This document shows positions 1 through 24,658 of a DNA stretch of 64,000 nt, piece by piece. Numbering within the stretch: position 1 is the stretch's first letter; each line of letters begins with the position of its first letter. Made by a program: the position numbers and the translations under genes. The stretch is taken from IMG/VR virus record IMGVR_UViG_3300040816_000831, one strand, 5' to 3'. Under the pieces are notes generated by a model. The model was not told the DNA's origin. It saw only the letters and a list, made by a program, of their open reading frames with translations, and searched no databases. The stretch comes from a virus.

Positions 1-990
1 CAATATAAAATCTTTTGGTAGTTTCATAAGAGATAAAGCTTCTCTTACTGTTAAGTATCTATCTTCATCCGGATGAGTTAAGCACGTTGGCATATGTCCA
101 ACAAATGCTCCTATTTTATCTTTAGGAATCTCTGTAGTTTTTCTCATGATATTACCACCAGCTTTGAGCTTATGATATTGCCTATCGCATTTCTTTGCAA
201 CATTATCATATCCATTTTCTCTCATCCATTTAGCTACTTCTTTATATGTTGTTCTTTCTTCAATGTAGTCCATTGGGTTTGTTGTCTTTTCTATTTTATC
301 TTGAAATTCACTATGTGATATACCACCTTCTAATACTTCAAGAACATATCGATAATATGGTTCTTCAGAAGGTTTCTTTTCATTACAAAGAATTTGACTC
401 ATTGGGTCATCATCTTTTCTTTCAACTTCTCTTATATCATCAGCAATCATTGTAGGTCTTTCTAGTACATATTCAAATAATGGTACTTCATTACCTTTCC
501 AAAAGAAATAGAATGTTCTATCTCGTACTTGGCTGAGTCCATGTAGTATAGATTTTGTTTTAAAGATACTAAAAGTATATCCATTATCTTCTCCTATCTT
601 CCTCAATCTTCTTACAACGGGTTCTCCCATCTTACTTGCAAGCCTTGGTGCGTTCTCTCCCCAAAATACTTTTGGTTGTACTTCACTAAGTACATATTCA
701 GCAGATGTAAACATCCATTCGTTCATAGGATTATTACTTGCAGCTGATGGACTAAGTGAGCTGAGCCCTGCACATGGGCATACAGTATTAATCACATTAA
801 CTTTTTCTGTGTAACTCGCTCCCTCTGAGAGGTTCAAATATGGGACCTCATGGTTATAATGATTTAATAAGTGAGATTCATTAGCTTGAAAGCCTTCATA
901 TGTCATAATATACTTTGGTCTTTCTCCAAAGACATTTTCCATTGCTATTGTTTCTCCACCTATTAGTGGTACTATACTCGCATAACTCAT
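1..990 (-). CDS. C5 cytosine DNA methyltransferase-like protein (3' end runs off the window; absent from ORF track)
   Basis: Hand translation from ATG at 990 (ATGA overlap with upstream stop): MSYASIVPLIGGETIAM...TVCPCAGLS (motif IV PC)...FWGENAPRL (motif VI)...SQVRDRTFYF (motif VIII)...HPDEDRYLTVREALSLMKLP (motif IX-like). Motif I is degenerate. Confidence 0.8.
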   Translation of the reverse strand, partial: MSYASIVPLIGGETIAMENVFGERPKYIMTYEGFQANESHLLNHYNHEVPYLNLSEGASYTEKVNVINTVCPCAGLSSLSPSAASNNPMNEWMFTSAEYVLSEVQPKVFWGENAPRLASKMGEPVVRRLRKIGEDNGYTFSIFKTKSILHGLSQVRDRTFYFFWKGNEVPLFEYVLERPTMIADDIREVERKDDDPMSQILCNEKKPSEEPYYRYVLEVLEGGISHSEFQDKIEKTTNPMDYIEERTTYKEVAKWMRENGYDNVAKKCDRQYHKLKAGGNIMRKTTEIPKDKIGAFVGHMPTCLTHPDEDRYLTVREALSLMKLPKDFIL

Positions 991-1967
991 GCAAAAAACT
1001 CCTCTAGTCCAGCCTTTTCAATTCCATTCCAATATGGATAGAACTCTCTGGATAAATGTATTGATTGTGGTTTCTCCATATATTTAAAATCGAGCTTACC
1101 TTCTTTATTAAAGAGATGACCGGTCCATCTTTTGATACCGTATTCTTTCTCTATGTAATCGTTAAATTTATTTCTTGCATCATTTCTTTCTGACCAAGAA
1201 CCGTAAAATGGTTGTCCTTTATAATATCCTGATTGCGGTATTCTTCTACTTACATCTTCTATTGGAAGCAACTCATATATCTTTGCATTATACTTATGAG
1301 CTTCTTCAATATACCTATCAGCTAAATCTTCTATCTTTTGTCCTAGTCTAATTACATGATGTCTTATATCAATATTACCAAAATAGCATTCAAGCTCTTC
1401 ATAATCGTAAGGAATGTATTTATCAAATCCTTCGTTTAAAGCTCCATTTAAAGTTTTGAATGGAACACTGTTTACTGTCCAACCTGGTCGATACATGCAG
1501 ATGGAATGACTATCACCAATAACTATTTTAGAAGTTGGATTAGGATAGTCGATTCTTTCAGCTTCATTAAACATGCGTTCTAGATTTTTAAGGTCTACAT
1601 CATGCCATTCCGGTTGAACCTCTTTCTTAGCCGATTCCAGTTTTGATTTAACCATTTCGTGATACGGCGGGAAGTCGATTCCAATTGAAAAGACTCTGCC
1701 TTTGAACTTAGAAAAGTTGACAGTGTTCTTAACATAAGGAAAACCGTATACGCCACCAAACATATTAATTCCACCACTCCAATCAGTGCCGTGATAGACC
1801 CAAAGACTATCATAATCATTGTGGTCTTCAATTTCTCCACCGTAGTTAACATCGCAGTTTCCATATTTCTCCTTTATCATATCGCCATACATTACTCCTG
1901 CAGCTCCTCTATGAGAAGCAGCTCTCTTAGCTATTGGAATAAATGGACAATTAATTATATTTTTCAT
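987..1967 (-). CDS. Two-domain protein with C-terminal SGNH/GDSL hydrolase-like domain
   Basis: IVIGDSHS (block I), YFGNIDIRHH (block III-like), QSIHLS (block V-like); C-terminus LEEFFA; own promoter at 1975-2003. Confidence 0.55.
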   Translation of the reverse strand: MKNIINCPFIPIAKRAASHRGAAGVMYGDMIKEKYGNCDVNYGGEIEDHNDYDSLWVYHGTDWSGGINMFGGVYGFPYVKNTVNFSKFKGRVFSIGIDFPPYHEMVKSKLESAKKEVQPEWHDVDLKNLERMFNEAERIDYPNPTSKIVIGDSHSICMYRPGWTVNSVPFKTLNGALNEGFDKYIPYDYEELECYFGNIDIRHHVIRLGQKIEDLADRYIEEAHKYNAKIYELLPIEDVSRRIPQSGYYKGQPFYGSWSERNDARNKFNDYIEKEYGIKRWTGHLFNKEGKLDFKYMEKPQSIHLSREFYPYWNGIEKAGLEEFFA

Positions 1968-1974
1968 TAGATAT

Positions 1975-2003
1975 ATTATACCATACTTTTGTTCAAATGT
2001 AAA
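1975..2003 (-). promoter_or_regulatory. sigma70-type early promoter
   Basis: TTTACA-17 nt-TATAAT with TGG extended -10; same motif occurs ten times in the window. Confidence 0.8.
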
Positions 2004-2008
2004 CGTTT

Positions 2009-3073
2009 TTATTCAAAGAATTCACTAAGGGTATTAGTCTTTTGTACGCGCGCCACGCGTCTACGCGCGCATGCTCGCTCGTCTTCTCTTATCTGTAGGT
2101 ATACACCAAACTGACATGACAACACTTCAGTTCCGTAGTATTTAAGAGAATCTTGTTCATATTGAAATAATTTACTACCGTCTTTCTTATTTATATTGAA
2201 AGCTTTTGGATGAAATACAACATCTTTTGTTAATCCTATTTCATCTGAATTTTCTCTCATATAGTATATTGCTTCGTCATACAATTTCTTTGGAGCTTCT
2301 GGCCACATTAATTGTATTGTATACACAGCTCCTGGACCCGGCGATACAAATCTTTGGTCATGATGATACTTCATTTGTGGTAATACAGATGAAGAAGCAG
2401 CTCCATGGAATCCGTAATAATGTCCTATGCCAGGTTGTTCTCTTAAAAGAGTATAAATCTCTGACATATGATTACATTGTTGCATTCGTTCTAAGAAACC
2501 AGTATCTCTAAAAGAAGATACCCATTCACAAACATCAACTGCATGAAACTTTCTATCTGGTTCGTTATACTTTTCACGACAATAGTTTCTAGCAGCAGTT
2601 TGTATAGATGTGTGTAATTCTGTTGTTCCCCAAATTGGTTGCTTATTCTTTATTGCTTTATCTAAATTATTACGAACATATTGAATATAATCTTTATTTC
2701 CATTTGCTATTCTATCAAAATCAACAAAGACGTTATCTTCTCCTGAAGCAAGAAAATGAACTCCTCTTCCACCATAGAAATGAGATATAAAAGTATTACC
2801 TACAATATTCATTATTGTAGTATCTAGACTTGCTATCTCTTGACCAATAAATCTCATACGGTCATCAAGTGTAATTGTTGGATGAAAATATTCTACATCT
2901 TCGCCAAGACCAAAATCATTCTTGCCATGACGATTTACTGATTCATATTGTTCTTTTGAATATCCAAGTTGTATATTAGACCTTTCATTAACTTTATATA
3001 GAAACCAATTGAACTCTTTCATGAGTTCTTTATCGTAATTCGACCAATCGTAATTATATTTAGTACTTGACAC
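2009..3073 (-). CDS. aGPT-PPlase / 5-hmdU DNA kinase helical-domain family protein (HhH glycosylase-like base-hypermodification enzyme)
   Basis: PGIGHYYGF helix-hairpin-helix-like motif, SPGPGA, EVLSCQFGVY; these resemble the GxGxF...GPGA...ExxLCxxxKY pattern of the family; C-terminus LSEFFE. Confidence 0.6.
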   Translation of the reverse strand: MSSTKYNYDWSNYDKELMKEFNWFLYKVNERSNIQLGYSKEQYESVNRHGKNDFGLGEDVEYFHPTITLDDRMRFIGQEIASLDTTIMNIVGNTFISHFYGGRGVHFLASGEDNVFVDFDRIANGNKDYIQYVRNNLDKAIKNKQPIWGTTELHTSIQTAARNYCREKYNEPDRKFHAVDVCEWVSSFRDTGFLERMQQCNHMSEIYTLLREQPGIGHYYGFHGAASSSVLPQMKYHHDQRFVSPGPGAVYTIQLMWPEAPKKLYDEAIYYMRENSDEIGLTKDVVFHPKAFNINKKDGSKLFQYEQDSLKYYGTEVLSCQFGVYLQIREDERACARRRVARVQKTNTLSEFFE

Positions 3074-3473
3074 GTTCCTCGTTATCTCTCTTTAAATGAA
3101 CAATTGATATATCAGGACATCTTTTTTTAATCTCTTTGATTTGAATTGGGTCATCTTCGAAATGCATTTCTATTTCTACTCCCAAGTCTTTTAACATATT
3201 AATCATTTGTCCTTTAAAGATACCAGAAGCTTTTCTGCCATATAGTGGATTTTCTTTTACTCCATGAGTCACTTTATGATTTTTTAGTTTTCTTTCAAGT
3301 GGATTCATGTAAAGAGTATTATATATTCCTCTAGATTCTAGCATTTTTACTGTAGCTTCTCTATCAGCAAAAGGCCGCCCAGTAATGATGATGTCATCTT
3401 TACCGGGTCTTACGCCTGTGGTGCTTTCACCAAAATAGATTACTCCATCGATGTCAAACGAATTAATTTTCAT
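3060..3473 (-). CDS. HAD-superfamily phosphatase
   Basis: SFDIDGV (motif I), ITGR (II), K (III), HFEDD (IV); start taken at MKINSF. Confidence 0.8.
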   Translation of the reverse strand: MKINSFDIDGVIYFGESTTGVRPGKDDIIITGRPFADREATVKMLESRGIYNTLYMNPLERKLKNHKVTHGVKENPLYGRKASGIFKGQMINMLKDLGVEIEMHFEDDPIQIKEIKKRCPDISIVHLKRDNEERVKY

Positions 3474-4755
3474 AATCATTCTTCGCATCTTGGAAGGTGT
3501 GAGGCAAATCTGCTGCCTTCGGTCTATTCTCTTTGAGCTGTGGAGTAGTAATATCTGTCAATACTCTCCTAGCTAAAGCATCACATTCAAATTTGGCATC
3601 TTGAGTTTTGAGCTGTAATGGAGGAGTCTTTTGAGTCCATGCTGATGGTCCTCTTAAATATCCTACAATGCCCATCTCTGAAGCTACCTTACAAAATCTA
3701 ATTGCTGAAACAACAACTCCACCAGAGTTTGGAGAGTCTTGAACTGAAAGTCTAGCTGACATTTCATATCTTGCTCCTGCAAATCCATAAGCAACCATAT
3801 CAAAGTTAGCTATTTTATTATCAGATGAGATATAATCTCCACCTGGTTTTTGTTGAACAGTAAGAGATGGACCAGCAAATAATGTCATACCTGCAGTTGA
3901 TTCTCCTCTTACGCTGTTTTGTCCTTTTAAAACATTTTCTTTTGATACATGTTTGTTATGTAATCTATATTGTTTTGCCATATTCAAGAAGTCAGTATTT
4001 GCTGTTCTTCCTGTTCTTATATGCTCTTGTCCTTGTGTAGAACCAGCAGCCATATTCATTTGAATGTGTTGTGTTACCATTAAACCTGAATCTAACATAG
4101 CACCTTGTAGAACTTCTGACATTCTTGAAGCTCCCCAGGCTGACCTCATATCTGAACCAACAATTGTAAGTCCTGCATCTATGAATCTTTGTTCAGTTAT
4201 CATAGCATCTTCTGTTGAAATCAATGTCGGTATACAGTTTACGAAATGTATTCCTGCATCTAACGCAACATCAATCCAGTATTTAGAAGCTTCTTCTGAA
4301 CCAACTGGTAAATAGTTAATGAGTACATCTACATCATGATACTGTAGTAACTCAACAGTTCTTTCAAAAGATTCTGCTGGTACAGCTCCATTTACAAATG
4401 TGACTTCATCTGGATAATCATGCATGTGAGGAGCTATTCCGTCCATTTCTGGAGCTGAATAGACCATTGCATCATTATTTACAGCTGAACTATTTGATGT
4501 AGTTGTTATTTTTTCGACATGGTCCATAGCGCAATTAGGTTGAGCTCTTAAAGCTTTTGCTAATTTTTTATTTACTTTCCTTTTATCGATATCAAATCCA
4601 ATAACAAACTCGATGTCGTGTACTGAATATCCGCCGATATCTTCATACATTAGACCAATTTTGTCTTCTGGATTTTCGTTATAATATTGTACACCTTCCA
4701 CTAAAGACTTTGCACAACTTCCGACGCCGATTATTCCGGCTTTTATTTTTGACAT
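3463..4755 (-). CDS. ino1: myo-inositol-1-phosphate synthase-like protein
   Basis: GIIGVGSCA Rossmann motif, INYLPVGSEEA, FVNCIP, NTDFLNM, SDNK, QDSPNSGGVV, KTPP; SD AAGGAG. Confidence 0.85.
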   Translation of the reverse strand: MSKIKAGIIGVGSCAKSLVEGVQYYNENPEDKIGLMYEDIGGYSVHDIEFVIGFDIDKRKVNKKLAKALRAQPNCAMDHVEKITTTSNSSAVNNDAMVYSAPEMDGIAPHMHDYPDEVTFVNGAVPAESFERTVELLQYHDVDVLINYLPVGSEEASKYWIDVALDAGIHFVNCIPTLISTEDAMITEQRFIDAGLTIVGSDMRSAWGASRMSEVLQGAMLDSGLMVTQHIQMNMAAGSTQGQEHIRTGRTANTDFLNMAKQYRLHNKHVSKENVLKGQNSVRGESTAGMTLFAGPSLTVQQKPGGDYISSDNKIANFDMVAYGFAGARYEMSARLSVQDSPNSGGVVVSAIRFCKVASEMGIVGYLRGPSAWTQKTPPLQLKTQDAKFECDALARRVLTDITTPQLKENRPKAADLPHTFQDAKNDYEN

Positions 4756-4817
4756 ATTATTCTCCTTATATCAGTTTATTTGAGTGAGAAATTTGACTGG
4801 CGTACCAGAGTAGCTCA

Positions 4818-5123
4818 CTATATACTATTAGTTATAACACTTATCAGACCACTTCCAAGGATAATGACTGCTGCTGTGTTTAAAATTATCAATGCTCTAT
4901 CTTTCCAGATAAGAGCTACTATTAACCAACCGAATGTTCCAACTAAGGAAAACGCTTGGTCATAGAGAGCAAGGTCAGGATTAGACCTGCTTGCCATAGC
5001 AATTAAAAGAATAGCTGATGCTACCCATTTAATATACCAATCAATTGTATACTTAGGAGTTGCGCTCTTAAATATACGCTTTGAATTTTTTATTTCTTGT
5101 TCGTTAAATTTCGGTGAATTCAT
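4818..5123 (-). CDS. Small membrane protein with about three TM helices
   Basis: Three hydrophobic segments after DWYIKW; overlaps dCMP deaminase stop. Confidence 0.6.
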   Translation of the reverse strand: MNSPKFNEQEIKNSKRIFKSATPKYTIDWYIKWVASAILLIAMASRSNPDLALYDQAFSLVGTFGWLIVALIWKDRALIILNTAAVIILGSGLISVITNSI

Positions 5124-5544
5124 ATTTTACATTAGCCTCTTTAAATATTTCATGTGTTTTTTCTATTGCTTCTTTCCATCTATCTGGAGTATTTTCTGAA
5201 AGCGATACAACTCTAGATATTCCTGCTTGTATTATACCTAATGAGCAATGACCACAAACTGGTAAACCATAAATATATAATATAGAATCTTTTAAAGATA
5301 TTCCATTTTCTGCAGCATTATATATACAATTCATTTCTGCATGAACTACATATTGATACTTTGTTTCTCTATGATTATATCTTTCTTTACTATCTTCAAT
5401 ACCTTTAGGAAATCCATTATATCCTGTTGCTAATATTTTTCTATCTCTTACAGCAATTGCACCTATTTTTCTACTTGGGTCTTTACTCCATGTAGATATT
5501 TCACGAGCAATATCAAGAAATCTTTTATCCCACTTATTTAACAA
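5104..5544 (-). CDS. cd: dCMP deaminase
   Basis: SKDPSRKIGA, TGYNGFP, VHAEMN, PVCGHC zinc motifs; probable TTG start at 5544 after GAGAGG. Confidence 0.9.
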   Translation of the reverse strand: MLNKWDKRFLDIAREISTWSKDPSRKIGAIAVRDRKILATGYNGFPKGIEDSKERYNHRETKYQYVVHAEMNCIYNAAENGISLKDSILYIYGLPVCGHCSLGIIQAGISRVVSLSENTPDRWKEAIEKTHEIFKEANVKYEFTEI

Positions 5545-6211
5545 GGTCAAAGTGCCTCTCATACACATGTAAGTTTTGTACTTGCCAATAAATTTTACCA
5601 CCACTTTTAAGTGGATGACCATTATAGTATAAATCTTTTTCTAGTTTTTCTAATACGTATTTTTGCCAAGCGTAATCATTTCGATAACCATATACAACGT
5701 CATTACTTCTCATTTGAACTACACAATGTAATTGTTCATCTCTTATATAATATGTAACAGCATTTGTACAAATAAAATCATTCTTACCATCTTCTTTAAA
5801 TTCGCGCCAGATACTTGGTCTTTGATATACCATTGAAGCTCTACGAGAATCTGGATTAATTTCACTTAGTTCTTTTACTACTTGATTATATTGTCTATGA
5901 AATTTTTTACTGAATATAAGATGACCATAATTAGAATTGATTTCACCATAATCATTTGCAGAATATTCCCATGCTGCTGGCGACTTACCATATATTTCAG
6001 CAAGTTTATTAATATTAGTTGACCTAGAATTATACCATTCTATTTCAGCATCAATATATTCTTGATTGGGTTTACCAAAAATTGATGGCTTATCTGCTAG
6101 AAAAGACGCAGCAAATATTTCGATTGTTTTACAACCAGTCTTATCATCGGTAAACTCTTTGTTTTTAAGTTTATCGATAAACGTATTTGCGATATCTTTA
6201 GTCTTCAACAT
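5534..6211 (-). CDS. gp42: dCMP hydroxymethylase (T4 gp42 type)
   Basis: DKTGCKTIEI, EINSNYG, NPDSRRA, DFICTNAV, MRSNDVVYGYRNDYAWQKYVL, LHVYERHF closely match T4 gp42, including the Asp of RND that specifies dCMP over dUMP. Confidence 0.9.
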   Translation of the reverse strand: MLKTKDIANTFIDKLKNKEFTDDKTGCKTIEIFAASFLADKPSIFGKPNQEYIDAEIEWYNSRSTNINKLAEIYGKSPAAWEYSANDYGEINSNYGHLIFSKKFHRQYNQVVKELSEINPDSRRASMVYQRPSIWREFKEDGKNDFICTNAVTYYIRDEQLHCVVQMRSNDVVYGYRNDYAWQKYVLEKLEKDLYYNGHPLKSGGKIYWQVQNLHVYERHFDLVK

Positions 6212-6527
6212 TACTTACCTTTTTGTTGAACATATCTCTTGTTGGGTCTTGGCCTTCCATTTTACCTCGAGCATAAGCAACAGCAAAAGAACAATAGTTA
6301 ATCATATCTTTATAAGTATCTTCAATACTTTCGAAGTTTGGGTCATCGGCTGATTCAAGCAATGAAGTTGCTCTCATCATTTTACCAAGAATAATATCAT
6401 GAATCGTATCAATGCCACGTCTATAATGCATGGCTTGGACTACTGTTGATTCAGAACTTTGATAGTCTTGGGATTTTTTAGTTTGTAGTTCTGCGCATTC
6501 TTGCAGGACTCTTAAGCTTTCTTTCAT
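6198..6527 (-). CDS. Nucleotide modification-associated domain (Nmad1/DUF1599-like) all-helical protein
   Basis: KKSQDY and ESIEDTYKDMINYC motifs; coupled to gp42. Confidence 0.65.
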   Translation of the reverse strand: MKESLRVLQECAELQTKKSQDYQSSESTVVQAMHYRRGIDTIHDIILGKMMRATSLLESADDPNFESIEDTYKDMINYCSFAVAYARGKMEGQDPTRDMFNKKVSNVED

Positions 6528-6556
6528 AATGTCTCCATAATTAATTAGATATATCT

Positions 6557-6585
6557 ATTATATCATACTTTTGGTTAAATGTAAA
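6557..6585 (-). promoter_or_regulatory. sigma70-type early promoter heading the modification cluster
   Basis: TTTACA-17-TATAAT with TGA extended -10. Confidence 0.8.
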
Positions 6586-6592
6586 CTGTTTT

Positions 6593-7015
6593 TTAATATA
6601 TTTTACTACTTGTAAATTTTCGTAGTTCATCACCTTTACCTTTAAAGGTTGTTATCATTTTCATTTTACTTATTGGCCAACCACACATTACTCTTCCATC
6701 GCGTGTAGTTATTTCTTTTGTATCATTTCTATCAATACACTCCCATAATATTGCATCAGGGGAGTTATCATATTCAACAAAGAAAAGACGGTCTACTGAT
6801 TTACATTTTGGTACTTGATTTTTCCAAGCTGTATTTACAGTAAAGTAACCAAAGGGATGTCTATTTTGGCATTTAACTTCTGCTGTTTCATCAAGTATCA
6901 TACCATCTTTTTTGCTATCATATTTGTCAGTACTTTGTTCACCACTAAAGTAATCAAAAACTAATTGTTCGGCTAAAAAGCCCATCTTTTCTTTATTTGT
7001 TTTATATGTATTCAT
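6593..7015 (-). CDS. Putative PD-(D/E)xK nuclease
   Basis: GFLAE...KKDG...AEVKCQ spacing fits E...D...ExK. Confidence 0.45.
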   Translation of the reverse strand: MNTYKTNKEKMGFLAEQLVFDYFSGEQSTDKYDSKKDGMILDETAEVKCQNRHPFGYFTVNTAWKNQVPKCKSVDRLFFVEYDNSPDAILWECIDRNDTKEITTRDGRVMCGWPISKMKMITTFKGKGDELRKFTSSKIY

Positions 7016-7446
7016 TATCTACTAAGAGATTTATTGTATATAATACCTTCTGATATTAATACTTCTCTATTCCACATGTGTCCTTTTTCAGTGTCATCTT
7101 TTGACTGACCAAAATAAGGAACTGCATGACAATCTTTTATCATTTGTTGATTAACACTAAAATTAGAATTACCTATAAAAAGTTCACCAAGTATTCTGCC
7201 AAACTTTCCTTTATCATGAGATTGTAATTGAACCTCTTGGTCTTTTAGTATTTTCTTTAAGTGAGCTTTTGAAGCTAAGCCATAAAACTTTTCTTCTAAA
7301 TCTCTAGTTCTAGATTCTGGAGTATCAATACCCATCATTCTAACTCTTTGTTTTTTGTAGACCATTCCAAATCCTAAATCGATATCTACATCAACTGTAT
7401 CTCCATCTACGACTCTTGTGACCTTTACGTTATATCTATAGCTCAT
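7015..7446 (-). CDS. Thermonuclease (SNase) family nuclease
   Basis: VVDGDTV, RMMGIDTPES, GKFGRILG. Confidence 0.9.
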   Translation of the reverse strand: MSYRYNVKVTRVVDGDTVDVDIDLGFGMVYKKQRVRMMGIDTPESRTRDLEEKFYGLASKAHLKKILKDQEVQLQSHDKGKFGRILGELFIGNSNFSVNQQMIKDCHAVPYFGQSKDDTEKGHMWNREVLISEGIIYNKSLSR

Positions 7447-8232: not shown

Positions 8233-9146
8233 ATATTATTTTTAAACACGAATTCAATAGCTCGTGCTGCCTCCTTTTCTAAATCTCTTTTATTATACCA
8301 CCCACCAGTATCAGTATCTAAATCTCTACAGATATATTCGATTTCTTTTGGTGTAATTGGATAACCTTTACTATGAGCATTACCAGCAGTTGTTAACATG
8401 ATTTGATACATTTTTGCATACCAACCAGTTCCACTGATACCTTTATATTCGTCAACTTGTTTTTTATTAACAAAAGGACAATCACGATATGATGTCCACG
8501 TATAATTTGTATTGTTCAATTCATTTCTTTTTCTTTCAAGTAACGCTTTTTGTATTGCTTCTGGAAAACGATCGAACATTGTTTGATTAGGTTTAACGTA
8601 TGGATATTGTTCCATAAGTTTATGTGGGTTCATAATATCTCCATCGTGAGAAAATATGAAATTAAAACTGTTTTTGTATTTAGCAGGAACATAATACATT
8701 CTGCTTAAGTCTTTGGTTTGAGCATCAGCAATATCGCCAATCTCTTTGTTTAAAGCATACCAAAAATGCTTAATGTCTTCTTTATCAACGAATTCTGTTA
8801 ATGGAAAGACGAGTCTAAACTTTGGTGATTCAACTGTAGATGATGCTGTTGAATAACATACATAACGATACTTATCATACTTTGATTCAATATCTTTCAT
8901 ATCGCCTTCATAATCATCAATATCAAGAATACCAAAGCCGGCCCAACCAACAACATTATCATTTGCACGAGTAGTACTAGTTTGATATATTGCTGGACTT
9001 AAAAGCGGAGCATCTTTCTTTGTAGGATATTTAGTCGACTCAGAAAGCTTATAGAGAATAGCCTCGAACTCGTCGAAACTATTATAATCCATACGCTTAT
9101 CTGTTTTGTTATCGTATATATTATCGAATATTGTGCAACTTACCAT
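8229..9146 (-). CDS. AEP-superfamily primase/primase-polymerase-like protein
   Basis: ILDIDD (DxD), YSTASS...PKFRLVFPL, KDLSRMYYVP; helical C-terminal domain. Confidence 0.6.
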   Translation of the reverse strand: MVSCTIFDNIYDNKTDKRMDYNSFDEFEAILYKLSESTKYPTKKDAPLLSPAIYQTSTTRANDNVVGWAGFGILDIDDYEGDMKDIESKYDKYRYVCYSTASSTVESPKFRLVFPLTEFVDKEDIKHFWYALNKEIGDIADAQTKDLSRMYYVPAKYKNSFNFIFSHDGDIMNPHKLMEQYPYVKPNQTMFDRFPEAIQKALLERKRNELNNTNYTWTSYRDCPFVNKKQVDEYKGISGTGWYAKMYQIMLTTAGNAHSKGYPITPKEIEYICRDLDTDTGGWYNKRDLEKEAARAIEFVFKNNI

Positions 9147-9534
9147 GATTTCCTTCGTGACTTGGTCCTTCCCAACCTTCTGGTTTGATTAGGTCTGGTA
9201 ATCCTAGTGGATTAGGTCTTTCAGGTTTTACTCCTACTGTTTTATTTAAGTTTGCTTTTAGAACTTCATCCCAAGCTTTATATGGGTCAATACCAAATGC
9301 ATCAAGTGTTCCAATAGCAACAACACATATATCGATTAAACCATCGACAATTTCTTCTGCATCGTTATTGGTTAATGCTGCTTCAGTTTCCATAAGTTCT
9401 TCTCTTATAAATTTGATTCTAAATCCAAGATAAGCACGTAGCTTTTCAGCGTTGTCTTTATTATCATGAATCCATTTATGAACTCCATACTTATACTGCA
9501 TGTCTTGAATATCTTTTATCCAGTTTTGGCTCAT
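9121..9534 (-). CDS. MazG/PRA-PH-like all-alpha NTP pyrophosphohydrolase
   Basis: IREELMETE...EEIVDGLIDI, ANLNK, KPEGW. Confidence 0.8.
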   Translation of the reverse strand: MSQNWIKDIQDMQYKYGVHKWIHDNKDNAEKLRAYLGFRIKFIREELMETEAALTNNDAEEIVDGLIDICVVAIGTLDAFGIDPYKAWDEVLKANLNKTVGVKPERPNPLGLPDLIKPEGWEGPSHEGNHGKLHNIR

Positions 9535-9858: not shown

Positions 9859-10431
9859 TTAATCCCAATTAATTGCAGGTATTTGTCCATAAAATCCTTG
9901 AGTTGCTTTTAATTGAGTAGGAAAATATTTAGAAAGCTTCTCAATATCTCCATGATCGTAATTTAATTTAGGCAATCTTGCCTCTTTCTTTTGAACTATA
10001 ACAGATACATCATATCCATAAGTTCTCACAGCTGCATCTGAACAGTCAAATCCAGCTAATATAAGATTATATAATAATAATCCTGCATTCCATAATGAAA
10101 CATGTCCACCAACAATATTGTGTCTAAGTGGTGGAACAGATATTGCAAGAATTCCATTTGTATCTATAAGATGAAATATCTTACTTAAAAAATGATGTAC
10201 ATTCAATTGATGTTCAAGTGTATGTGCACACCAAACACAATCAAAATTTCTATCAAAGTCGATTGTATTAAAATCACCTTGATAATCTGATTCGAGTATA
10301 TCTGTTGTATAAACTTTTTTACCTCTTTCTTTAAACATATTAGAAAACTTTCCATCACCTGCGCCAACATCAAGTACTGAATTAAATTGAAAATCTGTTA
10401 CTAACTTTTCAAAGGTGAGTAAACTTCTCAT
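9859..10431 (-). CDS. Class I SAM-dependent methyltransferase (small-molecule type)
   Basis: VLDVGAGDG, HTLEH, ISVPP; ATGA overlap with gp43 stop. Confidence 0.85.
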   Translation of the reverse strand: MRSLLTFEKLVTDFQFNSVLDVGAGDGKFSNMFKERGKKVYTTDILESDYQGDFNTIDFDRNFDCVWCAHTLEHQLNVHHFLSKIFHLIDTNGILAISVPPLRHNIVGGHVSLWNAGLLLYNLILAGFDCSDAAVRTYGYDVSVIVQKKEARLPKLNYDHGDIEKLSKYFPTQLKATQGFYGQIPAINWD

Positions 10432-12959
10432 CCGAAAAAATCCTCCAGGCTTGCAACTTCTTTCGAAGTCCAACCTACTGCTTCCAAGACCGGTTCAATA
10501 GGATCGAGGAATGTTTTTTGAAACTGTGTTTCATGGTCGATGTATTTTCTTAAGCCAAACTCATCTGGAAGATAAGATGGGAAAGCAATTACATTTTCAT
10601 GAATTGAATTTGGTTGACGAAGATATATGAACTTAATCTTTTCGCCATTGTTTATAAGTTCGTATTTCTTTTTAAGCTGATTGTCTTCAATTAGTTTATT
10701 GTAAAGAATAGCTCCACGAACATGTATAGGCGTTCCTTTTTTATAGAGGGTATTTCTATCTTGGAACTTTTTAACTTGAGTCACTCCGCGCGGAAATGCA
10801 ATCTGGTCAGGTTCAAGAGTTTTGAAATAGTTCTTAAACTGTTCGATAGCTTGTTGAACTGTATTTTCATCTTCTTTCATTATGACTTTGAATATATTTT
10901 TAAGAGCATCACGACATGGTTCAGGTGTAGAAGACTTAATTGCTTCAATACCCATAATCTTAAGCTTTGGCTCGGCATATCTCACGCCTTCGTTATCATG
11001 TACATTCATAATATATCTTTTCTTTGCAGTCCAAAGCGCACGGTCAGCGATTGCTTCACGTTTCATAACCATACGATTATCTACTCCACCAAGATACTTA
11101 TACAATTGCTCATAAGACTTTTCAAGCTCTGGTTCAAGCGCTTCACTAGCAACTTTATCTAGAAAGTCGATTGTATTTTCAGGTTTGAATTTTTGTACAA
11201 AGTCGTTTAAGCATACATACAGCGAGTCTGTGTCGATAGCAATAACATAGTCTTTCCATTTTTCAGGTTTGAGCACTCTATTGAGATAGGTGTTAAGCGA
11301 ATATTCGGCCCATCGAATTGTAAGTTGTCCGGTGAGGGTAATTGCTTCTGCGATTCTCTGGTCAAAGAATCGAAAATAGCGATTGCCAAGAGCGCCATAC
11401 AAACTGTTAAGAAGAATCTTAATAGCCATTTGTCTGTTTTCGGCAATTGCAATATCTCTTTCAATTTGATATAATTTTTGTTTGTCATTTTTATCTACCT
11501 TTTCTTTTTCTTTTTGAGCGTTAATCATTTCTTGTTTAATACCAACACGCTCTTTATACATCTCATCGATAATGAATGGTATTATACCTGGCTTATCTAC
11601 ATTAAAATATTGTCCATTAGCTGCAAGAGCTTTACCTTTATTAGGAGCGATACGATGTTCGCTTATAGCACTATCAATATCGAATTGAGCAATCTCTCCA
11701 TTAGCAATCGTTTCAGGCGACATATTGTATTGCATAATGATTGATGGATAGAGAGAGTTTAAGTCAAAAGAAACAACGTTATCATGTATTCCTACTTGTG
11801 GGTCTTTAACAAAGCCACCTGGATAGTTAGACTTTACTTTATCTTCAACGAAAGGTATAGCAATATTGTTTGCAAATAATCTGCGATAGATAATCGTATC
11901 CCATATCATTGTAGTACCGAATGTATCGTTATAGTTAACGCCAGCTTTATATGCCATTGTCATACAAAGAGTAATCAATCCAAGCTTATCTTCGATTTTG
12001 TCGACAAGCTCAACGTCTTTGATATTATAGTCAATAAACTTTTGGTGATTATGCTTGTAAAGAGTATGAAGATTCGAATACTCATCATAAGATAGTTTCT
12101 TTTCTCCTAACACGACATGAGCAATGTTATCAAGTTTATAAGATTCTTGTGGTCCATAAGAATAACCAAACTTCTTAAATAGGTCGAGGTAATCAAGTTG
12201 AGATATACCTTTAAGTTCATAAGCAGTTTGAGTCCTTCCCATCTTAGTTACGTCTTGTCTATCAATCATTCCCCAAGGACTGAGTCTTTTTACGTAAGCT
12301 TCTCCAAGCATACGATTGATTCTATTCACAAGGTATGGAATATCAAAGAACCTTGAATTCCAGCCAGTCACGACATCAGGACAATATTGTTGAGATGACC
12401 AATGAGTAATAAAATTAATAAGCAAGTCATCTTCACGGTCAAACTTACGATATACTACCATGTGGTCTTTCATATAAGATTTGTCAGTATCATAATCACC
12501 TAAGCCCCAGACATAATAAGTATTGCCAATATTGTTTTTCATACAAATGGCTGTAATCTTATGGTCGGCTTTTTCAGGCTCAGGGAATCCATCGTCAGAA
12601 GCAACTTCAATATCAATTGTTGATACGTTGATTTTGTTTCGATCGAATTCGATATTACCAGGATAGTAATCATTAATGAATGCTGGAACGTACTTTGTGT
12701 TTCCATATATCTTTTTACCAGATACGCCTTTATTAGCTTGAACATACTCGTTAGCAGTTCTCATGGATTCGAACCTTTTGCCAGCATTTGCTACACCTAC
12801 AGGATTTCCATCAAGCGATTTCCACTTGGTAGGAAGATTGGTAGATGTAAAAAGGATTGGTTCGTATTTGACTTTCTTTTCAATTCGTCTTCCGTGGTCA
12901 TATCCTCGTAAGAGAATCATATTACCATATCGAGACACATTAGTATAGAATTTCATCAT
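10428..12959 (-). CDS. gp43: Family B DNA polymerase
   Basis: DIEV exonuclease motif, SFDLNSLYPS, KILLNSLYGALG, DTDS, C-terminal SLEDFFG. Confidence 0.98.
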   Translation of the reverse strand: MMKFYTNVSRYGNMILLRGYDHGRRIEKKVKYEPILFTSTNLPTKWKSLDGNPVGVANAGKRFESMRTANEYVQANKGVSGKKIYGNTKYVPAFINDYYPGNIEFDRNKINVSTIDIEVASDDGFPEPEKADHKITAICMKNNIGNTYYVWGLGDYDTDKSYMKDHMVVYRKFDREDDLLINFITHWSSQQYCPDVVTGWNSRFFDIPYLVNRINRMLGEAYVKRLSPWGMIDRQDVTKMGRTQTAYELKGISQLDYLDLFKKFGYSYGPQESYKLDNIAHVVLGEKKLSYDEYSNLHTLYKHNHQKFIDYNIKDVELVDKIEDKLGLITLCMTMAYKAGVNYNDTFGTTMIWDTIIYRRLFANNIAIPFVEDKVKSNYPGGFVKDPQVGIHDNVVSFDLNSLYPSIIMQYNMSPETIANGEIAQFDIDSAISEHRIAPNKGKALAANGQYFNVDKPGIIPFIIDEMYKERVGIKQEMINAQKEKEKVDKNDKQKLYQIERDIAIAENRQMAIKILLNSLYGALGNRYFRFFDQRIAEAITLTGQLTIRWAEYSLNTYLNRVLKPEKWKDYVIAIDTDSLYVCLNDFVQKFKPENTIDFLDKVASEALEPELEKSYEQLYKYLGGVDNRMVMKREAIADRALWTAKKRYIMNVHDNEGVRYAEPKLKIMGIEAIKSSTPEPCRDALKNIFKVIMKEDENTVQQAIEQFKNYFKTLEPDQIAFPRGVTQVKKFQDRNTLYKKGTPIHVRGAILYNKLIEDNQLKKKYELINNGEKIKFIYLRQPNSIHENVIAFPSYLPDEFGLRKYIDHETQFQKTFLDPIEPVLEAVGWTSKEVASLEDFFG

Positions 12960-16454: not shown

Positions 16455-16462
16455 TATTTATA
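16455..16462 (-). promoter_or_regulatory. T4 late promoter
   Basis: TATAAATA overlapping gp45 stop. Confidence 0.6.
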
Positions 16463-17129
16463 CATCGTAGCTTGAGTTTTTCTCAAGAGCGATAAAGTAA
16501 TCCACTGGGTAGTTACTATTAGTCCAGTTAGAGATAAGCTTTGAGCTAATGCTTACAAAGTAATCTCCTGGTAGTAACTTCAAGTTGGGTATACTTACCA
16601 CGAAGTTAAACTCATTTTTACATGAGTTGTCTTTATCTAGTTCAATCTCAAATAAGTTTGAAGTCGAGTCTCTTGTATCGAGTACAGAGGCTGTAATAAC
16701 TCCAGAATTACCTGTGATTGCTAGTTCAGTATGACCAAGAACAGCAGCAGCTTTACGAATCTGATTTAGTTTATCTTCTTCGATATTAACTCCAACTTCT
16801 GGTTCTGGCATCTGAATATCTTTTTGAGGAGTGGTTAGGATATCGCTTTCAGAAAAGAAATATCTTATCTTTTGTCCACTACCTTGTACCAATACTGCTT
16901 TATCTTCAAACTCTAATGTAGGATTATCGATAAGACTTAAGACTGATAAGAATTCGTTTAAGTCATAGACTCCGAATTCTTTAGGAAAGTCTTCCACTAT
17001 TTCAGCAGAAGCTAGAATAGTTTTGGACTCTGAAATAGTCTTCAGTTTTTGTCCTGGTTTGAAAACAATATTTGGATTTATTGTTGCGAAGTTTTTTAAC
17101 ACATTCAAGGTGTCTGTTGATAAGTTCAT
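16458..17129 (-). CDS. gp45: Sliding clamp
   Basis: LKNFATINPNI, FGVYDLNEFL, YFIALE. Confidence 0.96.
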   Translation of the reverse strand: MNLSTDTLNVLKNFATINPNIVFKPGQKLKTISESKTILASAEIVEDFPKEFGVYDLNEFLSVLSLIDNPTLEFEDKAVLVQGSGQKIRYFFSESDILTTPQKDIQMPEPEVGVNIEEDKLNQIRKAAAVLGHTELAITGNSGVITASVLDTRDSTSNLFEIELDKDNSCKNEFNFVVSIPNLKLLPGDYFVSISSKLISNWTNSNYPVDYFIALEKNSSYDV

Positions 17130-17181: not shown

Positions 17182-17478
17182 TTAGTTTTCATTTTTATCA
17201 TGGCAATCCAGAGCGATTATAGCATAGTGCAAAATCTTGAGAAGGTCAGCTCTGTTATGTCCTTCTTTTTTACCATACCTTTGAGCGTACTTAAGTACGT
17301 TTCCTAAAGAAAAACCCATACCATGTCCACAATCAATAATGAATTCAGTTGATTGAAACTGATTCTTTGAATAGTGGCCGGCATAAGTTTTGTCTATATA
17401 ACTCTTGAGCTCTTCAACAAGAGCTCCTTCGTTAAATTTGTAATCTATTTGATTAGACTTCATAAGTTTCTTCAGCAT
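17182..17478 (-). CDS. DUF3310-like protein (T7 gp1.7 nucleotide kinase-like)
   Basis: HYS...GNVLKYAQRYGKK...DLLKILHY; start at Met after AGGAG. Confidence 0.7.
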   Translation of the reverse strand: MLKKLMKSNQIDYKFNEGALVEELKSYIDKTYAGHYSKNQFQSTEFIIDCGHGMGFSLGNVLKYAQRYGKKEGHNRADLLKILHYAIIALDCHDKNEN

Positions 17479-18604
17479 TAATGTCTCCTGTCTCTTCGAC
17501 AATTTCATCAGCATCTACTTTGCTGTATAAGTCAAGGAAAGCTTCTTTTGTATCAGAATCGAACCTTGAAATACATAAGTCAATTGCTTTGTCTCTTTTC
17601 TCAAAGATGGAGAACGTTTGAACAATGTGACATAGTCTTCTTGTTGAAATTAATTCATCGACACCATCATCATAAAAAGTCTTTCTGATAATATCAGCCC
17701 AAAGGACTAGCTTTTCAGCAAAGTCGATATCCATACAATTGAATTTCTCCATGTGTTTGAATACAATCTTTTTCTCTACATTAAGAGATGGGAACTGTTG
17801 GTCAACTGATATTGTAAACCTTTCAAGGAAAGCATCATCGATGATTGAAGCTGCTGTGAACCTACCATCTTCTGAACCTTTACCTTTAGTATTAGCTGTT
17901 GCGATTACATTGAAACCTTCAGCAGGCTCTACGATTTCGCCAGTCTTTTTAACAAGTACTGGTTTACCTTCAAGGATTCCTTGTAAGCACATAATTTTGT
18001 TTGTTGCTCTATCGATCTCGTCAAGTAAGAGTATAGCTCCATTTTCCATTGCTTTAAGAACTGGACCTTTAGAGAAAACTGTTTCTCCATCGATAAGTCT
18101 AAAGCCACCAAGTAAATCATCTTCATCTGTTTCAGGATTGATTTGAACTCTGATAAACTCTTTGCCTACTTTAGCGCAAGCTTGTTCTACCATGAATGTT
18201 TTACCATTGCCTGATAGACCAGAGATATATGTTGGGTAGAACATATTCGACTTAACAATTTTTACGATGTCAGTAAATGCTCCCCAAGGTACGAATGAGT
18301 TATCTGTTTTAGCGAAGGTTTTTTCTTCGTTAACAATTGACTGCATTTGAGCTGCAGCTTGTGGCATTTGAACCACTGTGTTTGAAACCATTGTTTCTCT
18401 TAATGGTTCAATAAGACCGGCTAAGTCATAAGTACCAATTTTGACTCTGTTATTTTTAGTCATCATTGGGTCCCAATCTTTACCGGTGTAGCCGAAAGAT
18501 TTTCCAATCTCGACTATGATATTTTTTCTAAACTGAGTTGTATCAGGATATCTGGTAGCAAGCTCTTTTAGAATAATTTCGCTGGATTTTTTCAAGTTTT
18601 TCAT
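17453..18604 (-). CDS. cobS: CobS-like MoxR AAA+ ATPase
   Basis: GLSGNGKT, LLDEID, ATANTKG, STRRL. Confidence 0.9.
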   Translation of the reverse strand: MKNLKKSSEIILKELATRYPDTTQFRKNIIVEIGKSFGYTGKDWDPMMTKNNRVKIGTYDLAGLIEPLRETMVSNTVVQMPQAAAQMQSIVNEEKTFAKTDNSFVPWGAFTDIVKIVKSNMFYPTYISGLSGNGKTFMVEQACAKVGKEFIRVQINPETDEDDLLGGFRLIDGETVFSKGPVLKAMENGAILLLDEIDRATNKIMCLQGILEGKPVLVKKTGEIVEPAEGFNVIATANTKGKGSEDGRFTAASIIDDAFLERFTISVDQQFPSLNVEKKIVFKHMEKFNCMDIDFAEKLVLWADIIRKTFYDDGVDELISTRRLCHIVQTFSIFEKRDKAIDLCISRFDSDTKEAFLDLYSKVDADEIVEETGDINAEETYEV

Positions 18605-18637
18605 AATATTGTTTCCTTATCAATTTGTTATATGTAT

Positions 18638-18666
18638 ATTATACCATAGTTCTTTGTAAATGTAAA
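18638..18666 (-). promoter_or_regulatory. sigma70-type early promoter
   Basis: TTTACA-17-TATAAT. Confidence 0.8.
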
Positions 18667-18712
18667 GGTTTATTTTCACTTTTAGGTGAAATAATTAGCA
18701 GAATAGTGTTGT

Positions 18713-23883: not shown

Positions 23884-24083
23884 GTTGCTCTAGATGCTGC
23901 CACTTGTTTTGCGAGCTTACTCATTTTTCTTTGAGCTCTTGCAATTCTTTTGTGTGACTGTTTGATTAATAGCATTTGAGCCATTACGTTATCTCTTCGT
24001 TCTTTTCTAAGAGCAGTTTTTCTAATTCTTTTTTTCATAACACGAATGTGTCTTTGATTTTGTTGTGTACTTACTTTTTTCAT
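23880..24083 (-). CDS. Very basic hypothetical protein
   Basis: 67-aa K/R-rich ORF coupled to gp55 and gp47. Confidence 0.6.
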   Translation of the reverse strand: MKKVSTQQNQRHIRVMKKRIRKTALRKERRDNVMAQMLLIKQSHKRIARAQRKMSKLAKQVAASRAT

Positions 24084-24658
24084 TACATAAACAGCTCAAG
24101 TTTTTCTTTCTCTCGCTTCTTCTCCTCTTTTGCAAATTTCTTAATAGCTTCATCTTTAGTACGTATAGTACCAATCCTTTGTCTTAATGTATCAACATAA
24201 GCCATCGTTTGTTCAGCGCCTTCATTGTCCATACCCATTTGTACAAAATCTTCAATACCCATTTTCTCAATGAATTTAAATTTGATATCTTGTTGTTTCT
24301 TTTCTTTAGTTATTCTACGTATAAAAGCAAAATAACATATTTGAGTGAAGTATGAAAATGCATTAGGTTTACCTGTTCTTGTAGCAGTTTCAATGTTATA
24401 GTTTCCTATTGCTCTTAAGCAATTTTCAACGGCATCCATAACCATTTCTTCTCTATAAGTGTACCGAACGAAGTTCGGTCTGTGAGACAGTCCCTCTGAT
24501 ATTCTAATGAAACATTTTGCAATGTAATCAGGAACAGTAGGAACTTTTTTATCAGCCTTTCTGCATGCATGAGCTTCTACTGCATAATCCATAACGGCTT
24601 CAGAGAATTCTCTATTGTTAACGTAATGTGGTTTATCTTTTGGTTTGACCTTAGTCAT
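24083..24658 (-). CDS. gp55: Late transcription sigma factor
   Basis: HYVNN, RPNFVRYTYREEM, NAFSYFTQI..AFIRRI.KEKKQ. Confidence 0.96.
   Translation of the reverse strand: MTKVKPKDKPHYVNNREFSEAVMDYAVEAHACRKADKKVPTVPDYIAKCFIRISEGLSHRPNFVRYTYREEMVMDAVENCLRAIGNYNIETATRTGKPNAFSYFTQICYFAFIRRITKEKKQQDIKFKFIEKMGIEDFVQMGMDNEGAEQTMAYVDTLRQRIGTIRTKDEAIKKFAKEEKKREKEKLELFM

Follow-up and report, generated by a model that had tools for sequence, protein, structure and literature searches.

The first 6.6 kb of the stretch of viral DNA analysed here (IMG/VR record IMGVR_UViG_3300040816_000831; 64,000 nucleotides, hereafter the window), which comes from an uncultured estuarine/marine T4-like phage, hold nine minus-strand genes, mostly overlapping or abutting one another. 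In their order of reading these encode an Nmad1/DUF1599 protein (positions 6198-6527), a gp42-type deoxycytidylate (dCMP) hydroxymethylase (5534-6211), a dCMP deaminase (5104-5622), a small DUF6552 membrane protein (4818-5123), a homologue of myo-inositol-3-phosphate synthase (MIPS; P0004, 3463-4755), a small HAD-motif phosphatase of 142 amino acids (aa) (P0003, 3060-3488), a member of the aGPT-Pplase/AADT/HMUDK_hel superfamily (P0002, 2009-3073), a predicted chimera of a beta-glucosyltransferase (beta-GT)-like domain and an SGNH domain (P0001, 987-1967) and a C5-cytosine methyltransferase homologue (1-990). A first reading of the letters by a model (the original prediction) had listed the same run; the minus strand does carry all nine genes at these positions, and family matches were found, the HAD assignment being, to judge from sequence, the weakest of the nine calls. 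The run had been taken for a DNA-modification cassette acting on a hydroxymethyl-pyrimidine, and this link to DNA modification is well supported, both by the gp42-type enzyme (1e-67) and by the tight and wide linkage of MIPS and HAD to two DNA-acting enzymes. We tentatively read the cassette, with slightly less than even confidence, as a kinase-free system for post-replicative cytosine hypermodification, in which 5-hydroxymethylcytosine (hmC) would first receive an O-acyl group and a cyclitol derived from MIPS would then take that group's place. The genomic slot of the cassette, the linkage of its genes, the P0002 fold with its Glu/Cys pair, the P0001 chimera and the clamp-binding tails are new in this analysis.

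A 4.7-kb IMG/VR contig (L006), 99.7% identical to the window over their overlap, prolongs it leftwards. The methyltransferase homologue, of which the window holds the first 330 of 395 aa, is complete on this contig (L006:17-1204) and is followed by ribosomal protein S21, UvsX, a 120-aa open reading frame (ORF) and the gp41 helicase, and the cassette therefore sits between gene 42 and uvsX. It fills this interval, which in T4 is occupied by b-gt and in the T-even phage teqhad by a glucosyl transferase.

The gp42-type enzyme matches PDB entries 1b49/1b5e at E 1.1e-67, with residues 15-224 covered. Its RNDYAW and FICTN motifs align with RNDYAW and FMCTN of T4, and the D179N mutant entry 6l18 reads RNNYAW. 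In T4 gp42, Asp179 selects cytosine (the corresponding residue is Asn in thymidylate synthases) and Cys148 is catalytic. Because the specificity Asp is kept, the phage is predicted to make hydroxymethyl-dCMP (hmdCMP) and not hydroxymethyl-dUMP, so that of the two bases left side by side in the original prediction hmC is retained and 5-hydroxymethyluracil (hmU) is dropped. The listed ORF of the dCMP deaminase (PF00383, 3.1e-19; phrog_174, 7e-46) overlaps gp42 by 89 bases, and for this reason translation probably begins at an internal ATG, near 5568 or 5562. Two further proteins may act on nucleotides: the Nmad1/DUF1599 protein, whose gene is the first past a promoter-like site (PF07659, 1.5e-7; phrog_1485, 4e-15), and a MazG/PRA-PH-type nucleotide pyrophosphohydrolase encoded outside the cassette (9121-9534, minus strand; PF01503, 7.8e-11; phrog_671, 3.5e-22), which is a candidate for the dCTPase role. 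Similarity of the MazG-like protein to any T4 protein was not detected, and neither it nor the Nmad1 protein has a detectable counterpart in T4 or in the Aeromonas phages 44RR and 25.

The MIPS homologue scores 31.3 bits against PF01658 (cut-off 27) and aligns with Ino1 of M. tuberculosis (PDB 1gr0) at 5.7e-49 over residues 3-389. Four Asp/Lys positions, D197, K284, D310 and K346 of the M. tuberculosis enzyme, which we take to be its catalytic residues, are identical in this alignment. In the protein encoded directly downstream, P0003, the motifs FDIDGV, ITGR and FEDD can be read; its only family match is phrog_415, a group of polynucleotide-kinase-type phosphatases (5.6e-7), and it has no match in Pfam, NCBIfam or PDB sequence searches. 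The DUF6552 gene (PF20189, 1.5e-17), found in many relatives though not in all, adjoins MIPS on the other side. Its product had been described as having three membrane spans: three hydrophobic stretches are indeed visible by eye, and one alone passes a strict hydropathy cut.

P0002 matches PF18723 (HMUDK_hel) with 45 bits against a cut-off of 25 (1.2e-11); the match is partial and covers profile positions 109-238 of 281. For a structure model built from an 11-sequence alignment (predicted local distance difference test, pLDDT, 85), the best solved structure found with VIA-align is gp46/PUGT of phage PaMx11 (8z2n_B; Z 11.1, root-mean-square deviation (rmsd) 4.1, 224 aa), a 5-phosphomethyl-dU glycinyltransferase with an HhH-glycosylase-like fold of two bundles. 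Queuine-salvage proteins and DNA glycosylases of the HhH/OGG type rank lower, at Z 7 to 9, and Foldseek alone gave no significant match for P0002. The pair Glu316-x3-Cys320 is invariant among the 11 homologues; it aligns with a pair in ADDT of Caulobacter phage Cr30 (PF18724, 1e-52), in the HMUDK_hel protein of Ralstonia phage RP13 (ORF120) and in the C-terminal half of a fusion protein of phage 44RR. In the characterised transferases the corresponding Cys and its neighbouring Glu are essential, and the chemistry proposed for them is that the Cys adds to C6, the phosphate is expelled and the exocyclic methylene is attacked by an amine or a hydroxyl (PMC8989533; PMC11472151). A hydroxyl nucleophile has a precedent in the superfamily, as in phage ViI serine is joined through its own hydroxyl, giving an ether link (PMC8989533).

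P0001 has no Pfam hit, and the beta-GT model (PF09198) gives only 13-14 bits on two of its relatives against a cut-off of 27. The family is large, with 1274 clusters in a large protein collection, and among the 120 best of those listed there is no functional name and no Pfam domain. In the structure model (pLDDT 82), residues 145-314 have the SGNH fold, with Z 12.0-12.8 to GDSL esterases (rmsd about 3 over 150-160 aa), and Ser153 (in GDSH), Asn198 (in GNID) and His304 are invariant in the family. Residues 1 to about 140 resemble the acceptor domain of T4 beta-GT (hhalign probability 80%, E 1.4e-5): residues 29-98 fall on beta-GT 38-100, and the invariant Asp98 falls on Asp100, the catalytic base of the T4 enzyme, with which the title of the D100A entry 1nzd agrees. 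Foldseek, run with the model, lists beta-GT entries over the full length (1qkj at 4.9e-4). The SGNH fold thus occupies the C-terminal half, where beta-GT has its UDP-glucose-binding domain. By these models P0001 is a chimera, in which an acceptor domain for hmC is joined to an acyl-enzyme domain, and not a member of the beta-GT family. In the Aeromonas phages 44RR and 31 the homologues of P0001 and P0002 form one polypeptide, a fusion that parallels the joining of kinase and helical domain in 5-HMUDK.

The last gene of the cassette encodes a C5-cytosine methyltransferase homologue that matches PF00145 at 1.1e-13 on the part inside the window and at 1.6e-15 on its full length (57.9 bits, cut-off 22); its NCBIfam dcm score is under the cut-off. 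It contains the motifs CPCAG (PC), GENAP (ENA), QVRDR and QNVP and ends in LQLTDFML. It is an observation in its own right that a phage predicted to make hmC conserves a C5-methyltransferase homologue in which the PC, ENA and QxRxR motifs are intact and which has a clamp-like tail.

In the known systems that hypermodify thymidine the hydroxymethyl group is activated by a kinase. No 5-hydroxymethylpyrimidine kinase was found in the early region of the window. PF18747 (HMUD2 kinase), a model that does detect the kinase of RP13, found none in four related contigs, which are fragments of up to 128 kb; with AAA_33 the only matches were P-loops in ORFs of 311-405 aa. The same four contigs hold no T4 beta-GT, GT1 or GT2, the only signal being a sub-threshold one for beta-GT on the homologues of P0001. 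The statement that the window has no T4 glucosyltransferase thus stands for a complete enzyme and has to be amended for the N-terminal domain of P0001, which is beta-GT-like. Since no kinase was found and the chimera stands in the place of the activating enzyme, P0001 is proposed to activate hmC by acylation. The SGNH protein had been suggested to add a late, further acyl group to a finished adduct; this is probably not its role, and the chimera more likely takes over from the missing kinase the activation of the hydroxyl of hmC.

When IMG/VR was scanned with MIPS, 192 related stretches were found, of which the best 80, with a MIPS identity of at least 75%, were analysed by tblastn with the proteins of the window, counting only loci with enough flank. 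HAD is present, directly after MIPS, in 72/72 testable MIPS loci, the aGPT-like gene (P0002) in 60/60, the SGNH gene (P0001) in 41/41, the methyltransferase gene in 31/34 and gp42 in 41/48. The order MIPS-HAD-transferase-SGNH was kept wherever the contig was long enough, and the counts bear on the joint occurrence of MIPS, gp42 and an aGPT-PPlase protein, which the original prediction had put forward as a check. A reciprocal scan with the SGNH family gave at least 509 IMG/VR stretches, and every relative kept (identity at least 59%) with enough upstream flank also carries MIPS-HAD-aGPT. The four genes remain together even where their order has changed (L071-73, L083). In variant loci, FkbM-type O-methyltransferases are inserted among the four genes, or an NAD epimerase/dehydratase and a UDP-glucose dehydrogenase stand beside them. 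In one group of relatives an alternative oxidase (PF01786, 1e-68; L062:13430-14005) and an FkbM methyltransferase lie between the aGPT-like and the SGNH genes.

A second line of evidence comes from the C-termini. The gp43 DNA polymerase of the window (10428-12959, minus strand) ends in SLEDFFG, which serves as the reference for a clamp-binding tail; P0001 ends in GLEEFFA, P0002 in TLSEFFE and the methyltransferase homologue in LTDFML. Among distinct tails in the relatives, the pattern is fitted by 39/41 for P0001, 35/36 for P0002 and 17/19 for the methyltransferase, and by 0/30 for MIPS, 0/20 for gp42 and 2/42 for the deaminase. Moreover, the tail covaries with that of the phage's own polymerase: in Aeromonas phage 25 gp43 ends in LFDMFDI and the P0001 homologue in TLELFDI, and in Cr30 gp43 ends in DLSSLFD and the TAGT-like protein beside ADDT and MIPS (L003:6943-7869) in DLSKLF. 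Clamp tails may be general on DNA-modifying enzymes of T4-like phages. A complex predicted for three copies of the gp45 sliding clamp (16458-17129, minus strand; PF09116, 1.7e-12) and the C-terminal 50 residues of P0002 reached a score of 0.60, the best control 0.00; its runs agree in at least 70% of contacts, and the partner pLDDT is about 40. We rated this as weak support: the mark is reached by 58/80 solved complexes and by 2/110 mismatched pairs, at a score of 0.60 or less by only 7/80 solved complexes plus both passing mismatches, and the pass may be recall, as a clamp-peptide complex has already been solved. Taken together, the tails suggest that P0001, P0002 and the methyltransferase act on DNA behind the fork and that the untailed proteins act on small molecules.

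The HAD protein of the window ends in NEERVKY and has no clamp-like tail. In a sub-clade whose MIPS is about 75-77% identical (L076, L080-L082, L084, L153-L158, L160), HAD is longer and ends in QLSLF or ELDLF, both clamp-like, which hints that in this sub-clade the phosphatase acts on DNA. A variant of the scheme proposed here could follow: inositol-3-phosphate would be attached to the DNA first, and the HAD protein, resembling the phosphatase of a polynucleotide kinase, would dephosphorylate it there, or a phosphodiester adduct would be kept. MIPS yields a phosphate ester directly, and both the only family match of HAD, to polynucleotide-kinase-type phosphatases, and the QLSLF tails of the sub-clade would suit such an order. 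The tailless HAD of the window and the fact that small HAD phosphatases commonly act on sugar phosphates speak against the variant, to which we give only a small probability.

The genes of the cassette recur in other combinations in cultured phages. In RP13, MIPS-HAD is flanked on one side by a strong HMUDK_hel protein and on the other by an HMUD2 kinase; in Cr30 it directly follows ADDT and a TAGT-like protein; and in the Menderaviruses of Stenotrophomonas (Moby) it is placed between FolE and QueC/DpdA/QueE, in a 7-deazaguanine cluster. MIPS and HAD therefore do accompany base-modification genes in related phages, and a failure to do so is what the original prediction had named as evidence against itself. 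The converse arrangement is found in three phages of Aeromonas, 44RR, 31 and 25, which have a gp42 with the specificity Asp and carry homologues of P0001 (27 to 34% identity), together with the P0002 half in 44RR and 31. In these phages (the first as 44RR2.8t) gene 42 has been reported as present and glucosyltransferases as absent (PMC2993671). The P0001 homologue has a sodium:solute symporter as neighbour in 44RR and a UDP-galactopyranose mutase in phage 25. The DNA-acting pair is thus combined with varied polyol or sugar supply genes, and MIPS-HAD with varied DNA-modifying enzymes.

In phage 25 (L005:3776-5957) the P0001 homologue has, directly upstream of it, the UDP-galactopyranose mutase (PF03275, 5e-54) and a 358-aa protein, an arrangement that suggests a furanose-type decoration of hmC. 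The 358-aa neighbour was considered as a relative of P0002 and rejected, with an hhalign probability of 0.8%.

The distribution of MIPS-HAD bears on whether its product is destined for DNA at all. The module could be an auxiliary metabolic one that provides inositol for a target other than DNA, such as host lipid or envelope, an osmolyte or the diversion of glucose-6-phosphate, and that is merely sited in the hyperplastic early region of T4-like genomes. The MIPS of a Stenotrophomonas phage has been published as a bacteria-like gene gained by horizontal transfer (PMC9025141); MIPS and the HAD of the window lack clamp tails, a membrane protein of the DUF6552 type adjoins MIPS, and unrelated auxiliary genes (ribosomal protein S21, alternative oxidase) are found in the same region. 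Against this stand the position of the module beside DNA-base-modification genes in four independent lineages and in 60/60 testable uncultured loci, and the clamp-like QLSLF end of HAD in one sub-clade, which points to action on DNA. On this evidence we consider an auxiliary role improbable.

A less improbable alternative, still one that we regard as unlikely, accepts that the cassette hypermodifies hmC through P0001 and P0002 and disputes the group that is attached: it would be an amino acid, a polyamine, another host metabolite or an acyl ester, and MIPS-HAD would be neighbours with another job. Amino acids or putrescine are what every characterised member of the P0002 superfamily transfers (PMC8989533), and the Aeromonas phages do without MIPS, 44RR and 31 having both P0001 and P0002 and phage 25 having P0001, near a symporter or a UDP-galactopyranose mutase. 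The two halves also differ in their divergence in the IMG/VR loci, where the P0002 clade ranges from 25 to 99% identity, with clades mutually 25-40% identical, while MIPS ranges from 75 to 100% and stays above 75%. What speaks for a cyclitol as the transferred group is that the linkage of the four genes is 100% where the flank is testable and survives rearrangement, that the inserted FkbM O-methyltransferases and sugar-nucleotide enzymes suit a polyol adduct, and that the MIPS-HAD pair turns up next to three further kinds of DNA-modification genes.

Several known systems can be compared with the cassette. The thymidine hypermodification of phages M6, ViI, PaMx11, PhiW-14 and SP10 (PMC8989533, PMC11472151) is, like the activity proposed here, a post-replicative change of a C5-hydroxymethyl pyrimidine in the polymer, and its transferases share with P0002 the fold (PUGT, Z 11.1) and the essential Glu/Cys pair. 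From the common fold and pair, an attack on C6 and an exocyclic methylene intermediate are therefore implied for P0002 as well. The differences are that the base is hmU there and would be hmC in the cassette; that a kinase activates it there, whereas here none was found and the beta-GT-like/SGNH chimera stands in that place; that the supply genes of the cassette would yield a cyclitol instead of processing an amino acid; and that the cassette enzymes bear clamp-binding tails.

With the glucosylation of T-even phages (gp42, gp56 and alpha-/beta-glucosyltransferase) the cassette shares the gp42 enzyme, the prior incorporation of hmC, the slot between gene 42 and uvsX and, in the N-terminal domain of P0001, homology to the beta-GT acceptor domain that extends to the catalytic-base Asp. 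It differs in that the SGNH domain replaces the UDP-glucose-binding domain, no complete glycosyltransferase having been found, and in that the phage encodes the synthesis of its own presumed donor. The arabinosylated cytosine of RB69-like and DLP3-like phages (PMC6024577, PMC13326640) also places, as is proposed here, a carbohydrate other than glucose on a C5-oxygenated cytosine with donor enzymes encoded by the phage, but those phages rely on glycosyltransferases of the GT-B type and on a nucleotide-sugar pathway (isomerase, kinase, nucleotidyltransferase), and the cassette has none of these. The nearest likeness among cultured phages is offered by Aeromonas 44RR2.8t, 31 and 25, with their P0001 homologues and the specificity Asp of gp42; the tails of the P0001 homologue of phage 25 and of the 44RR fusion resemble those of their own gp43, and these phages differ from the cassette in lacking MIPS-HAD. 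To our knowledge, the DNA modification of these three phages is not described.

The scheme that we favour, the displacement of an acyl group on hmC by a cyclitol, starts from the gene identities, folds, conserved catalytic residues, linkage and tails described above; from these we infer all of the chemistry that follows hmC, as well as the acyl donor and what serves as nucleophile, the cyclitol adduct itself being inferred from gene linkage. In a first step gp42, aided by the deaminase and the nucleotide hydrolases of the MazG/Nmad1 type, would make hmdCMP, and hmC would enter the phage DNA. MIPS and HAD would convert glucose-6-phosphate of the host into a cyclitol, most likely myo-inositol or its 3-phosphate. 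P0001, riding on the gp45 clamp, would hold the flipped hmC in its beta-GT-like domain, where Asp98 would activate the 5-CH2OH group; the hydroxyl of hmC would then attack an acyl group carried by Ser153 of the SGNH domain, to give 5-acyloxymethylcytosine. In this way the acyl group would play the part that phosphate has in thymidine hypermodification. Cys320 of the clamp-tethered P0002 would next add to C6 and expel the carboxylate, leaving an exocyclic methylene to which a hydroxyl of the cyclitol would add, with an ether-linked 5-(cyclitol-O-methyl)cytosine as the product. In some relatives an FkbM-type O-methyltransferase would further decorate the adduct.

Several findings weigh against this scheme. 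The likeness of P0002 to PUGT is structural only, the family profile run against PDB sequences giving no match to PUGT, and a Z of 11 for an all-helical protein is not far over background. In the SGNH domain of P0001 the usual Asp of the DxxH block, three residues before His, is not conserved. The MIPS homologue reaches 193.5 bits with TIGR03450, far under the equivalog cut-off of 638, and it is also related to a synthase of a five-membered cyclitol phosphate (6k96, 5e-25); its sequence marks P0004 as a MIPS family member whose product could be another cyclitol. MIPS-HAD is found without P0001 or P0002 (Moby, Cr30, RP13), and P0001/P0002 without MIPS (Aeromonas 44RR and 31, with P0001 alone in 25); each pair can do without the other. 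None of the related contigs is more than 71% complete, and a kinase or a glycosyltransferase elsewhere in the genome is possible. If hmC fully replaces cytosine, the C5-methyltransferase has no obvious substrate, C5 being already occupied; the enzyme may act on residual cytosine or apply the same C6-addition chemistry to hmC. A literature search on inositol or MIPS and phage DNA modification gave no description of a cyclitol on DNA, and the mentions of inositol that it matched were solely citations of MshA-like glycosyltransferase folds.

As regards the genomic setting, the genes upstream of the cassette are a small ORF, an SNase-type nuclease, a cell-wall hydrolase, a primase, the MazG-type pyrophosphohydrolase, gp43, the clamp-loader region and gp45. 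The closest cultured relatives by gp43 are phage C48C1 (52%) and marine cyanophages (46-48%), and near-identical DNA is found in estuary and marine metagenomes of many studies. A promoter had been placed at 6557-6585 (minus strand), at the head of the run. The sigma-70-like consensus there (11 of 12 positions, with TG) is a pattern match only; it does lie in the gap upstream of Nmad1 and is the joint-best in the region, but an equal-scoring site (TTTACA, 17 bases, TATAAT, with TG; 1975-2003, minus strand, likewise a pattern match only) stands in the gap 5' of P0001, and over the whole region such sites are no more numerous than in shuffled sequence. Contigs from RNA libraries of three marine studies, some of 4-6 kb, span window positions 1-7100 at 90-100% identity; these are assemblies, some longer than 4 kb, for which carry-over of DNA is possible, and they were not counted as proof of transcription.

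Some neighbouring genes were noted in passing. On the plus strand of L006 (1235-1501), between uvsX and the gene for the methyltransferase homologue, the phage encodes a ribosomal protein S21 (PF01165, 2e-17). Directly downstream of gp43 (9859-10473, minus strand) there is an S-adenosylmethionine-dependent methyltransferase of the small-molecule type (Methyltransf_23/11, BioC- or UbiG-like). Between gp45 and large downstream ORFs (17453-20920, minus strand) an AAA_5/CbbQ-type ATPase of 383 aa is followed by a 735-aa protein without a family match. A 191-aa protein without a Pfam match (24083-24658, minus strand) ends in KLELFM, a clamp-type tail, and may be a gp55-like late sigma factor.

In its widest form our proposal is that 5-(inositol-O-methyl)cytosine, sometimes O-methylated, is a new natural base, made by a kinase-free, clamp-tethered route that is widespread in marine and freshwater T4-like phages, with Aeromonas variants using other polyol or sugar supplies; we advance this as a possibility with somewhat less than even odds. 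If true, cyclitols would be a new chemical class among natural DNA modifications, and acylation in place of phosphorylation would be a new way of activating 5-hydroxymethylpyrimidines. The fate of hmC in T4-like phages that have gene 42 and no glucosyltransferase, a question since the Aeromonas genomes (PMC2993671), would be explained. An inositol adduct would have the mass of glucosyl-hmC and be ether-linked, so that it would be expected to resist glycosidases and could be misread in surveys based on mass only. The enzymes of the cassette could serve as tools for the selective labelling of 5hmC. Finally, the abundance of the system (192 MIPS stretches, at least 509 P0001 stretches and 1274 P0001 clusters) bears on restriction, CRISPR targeting, library preparation and nanopore base-calling of marine phage DNA.

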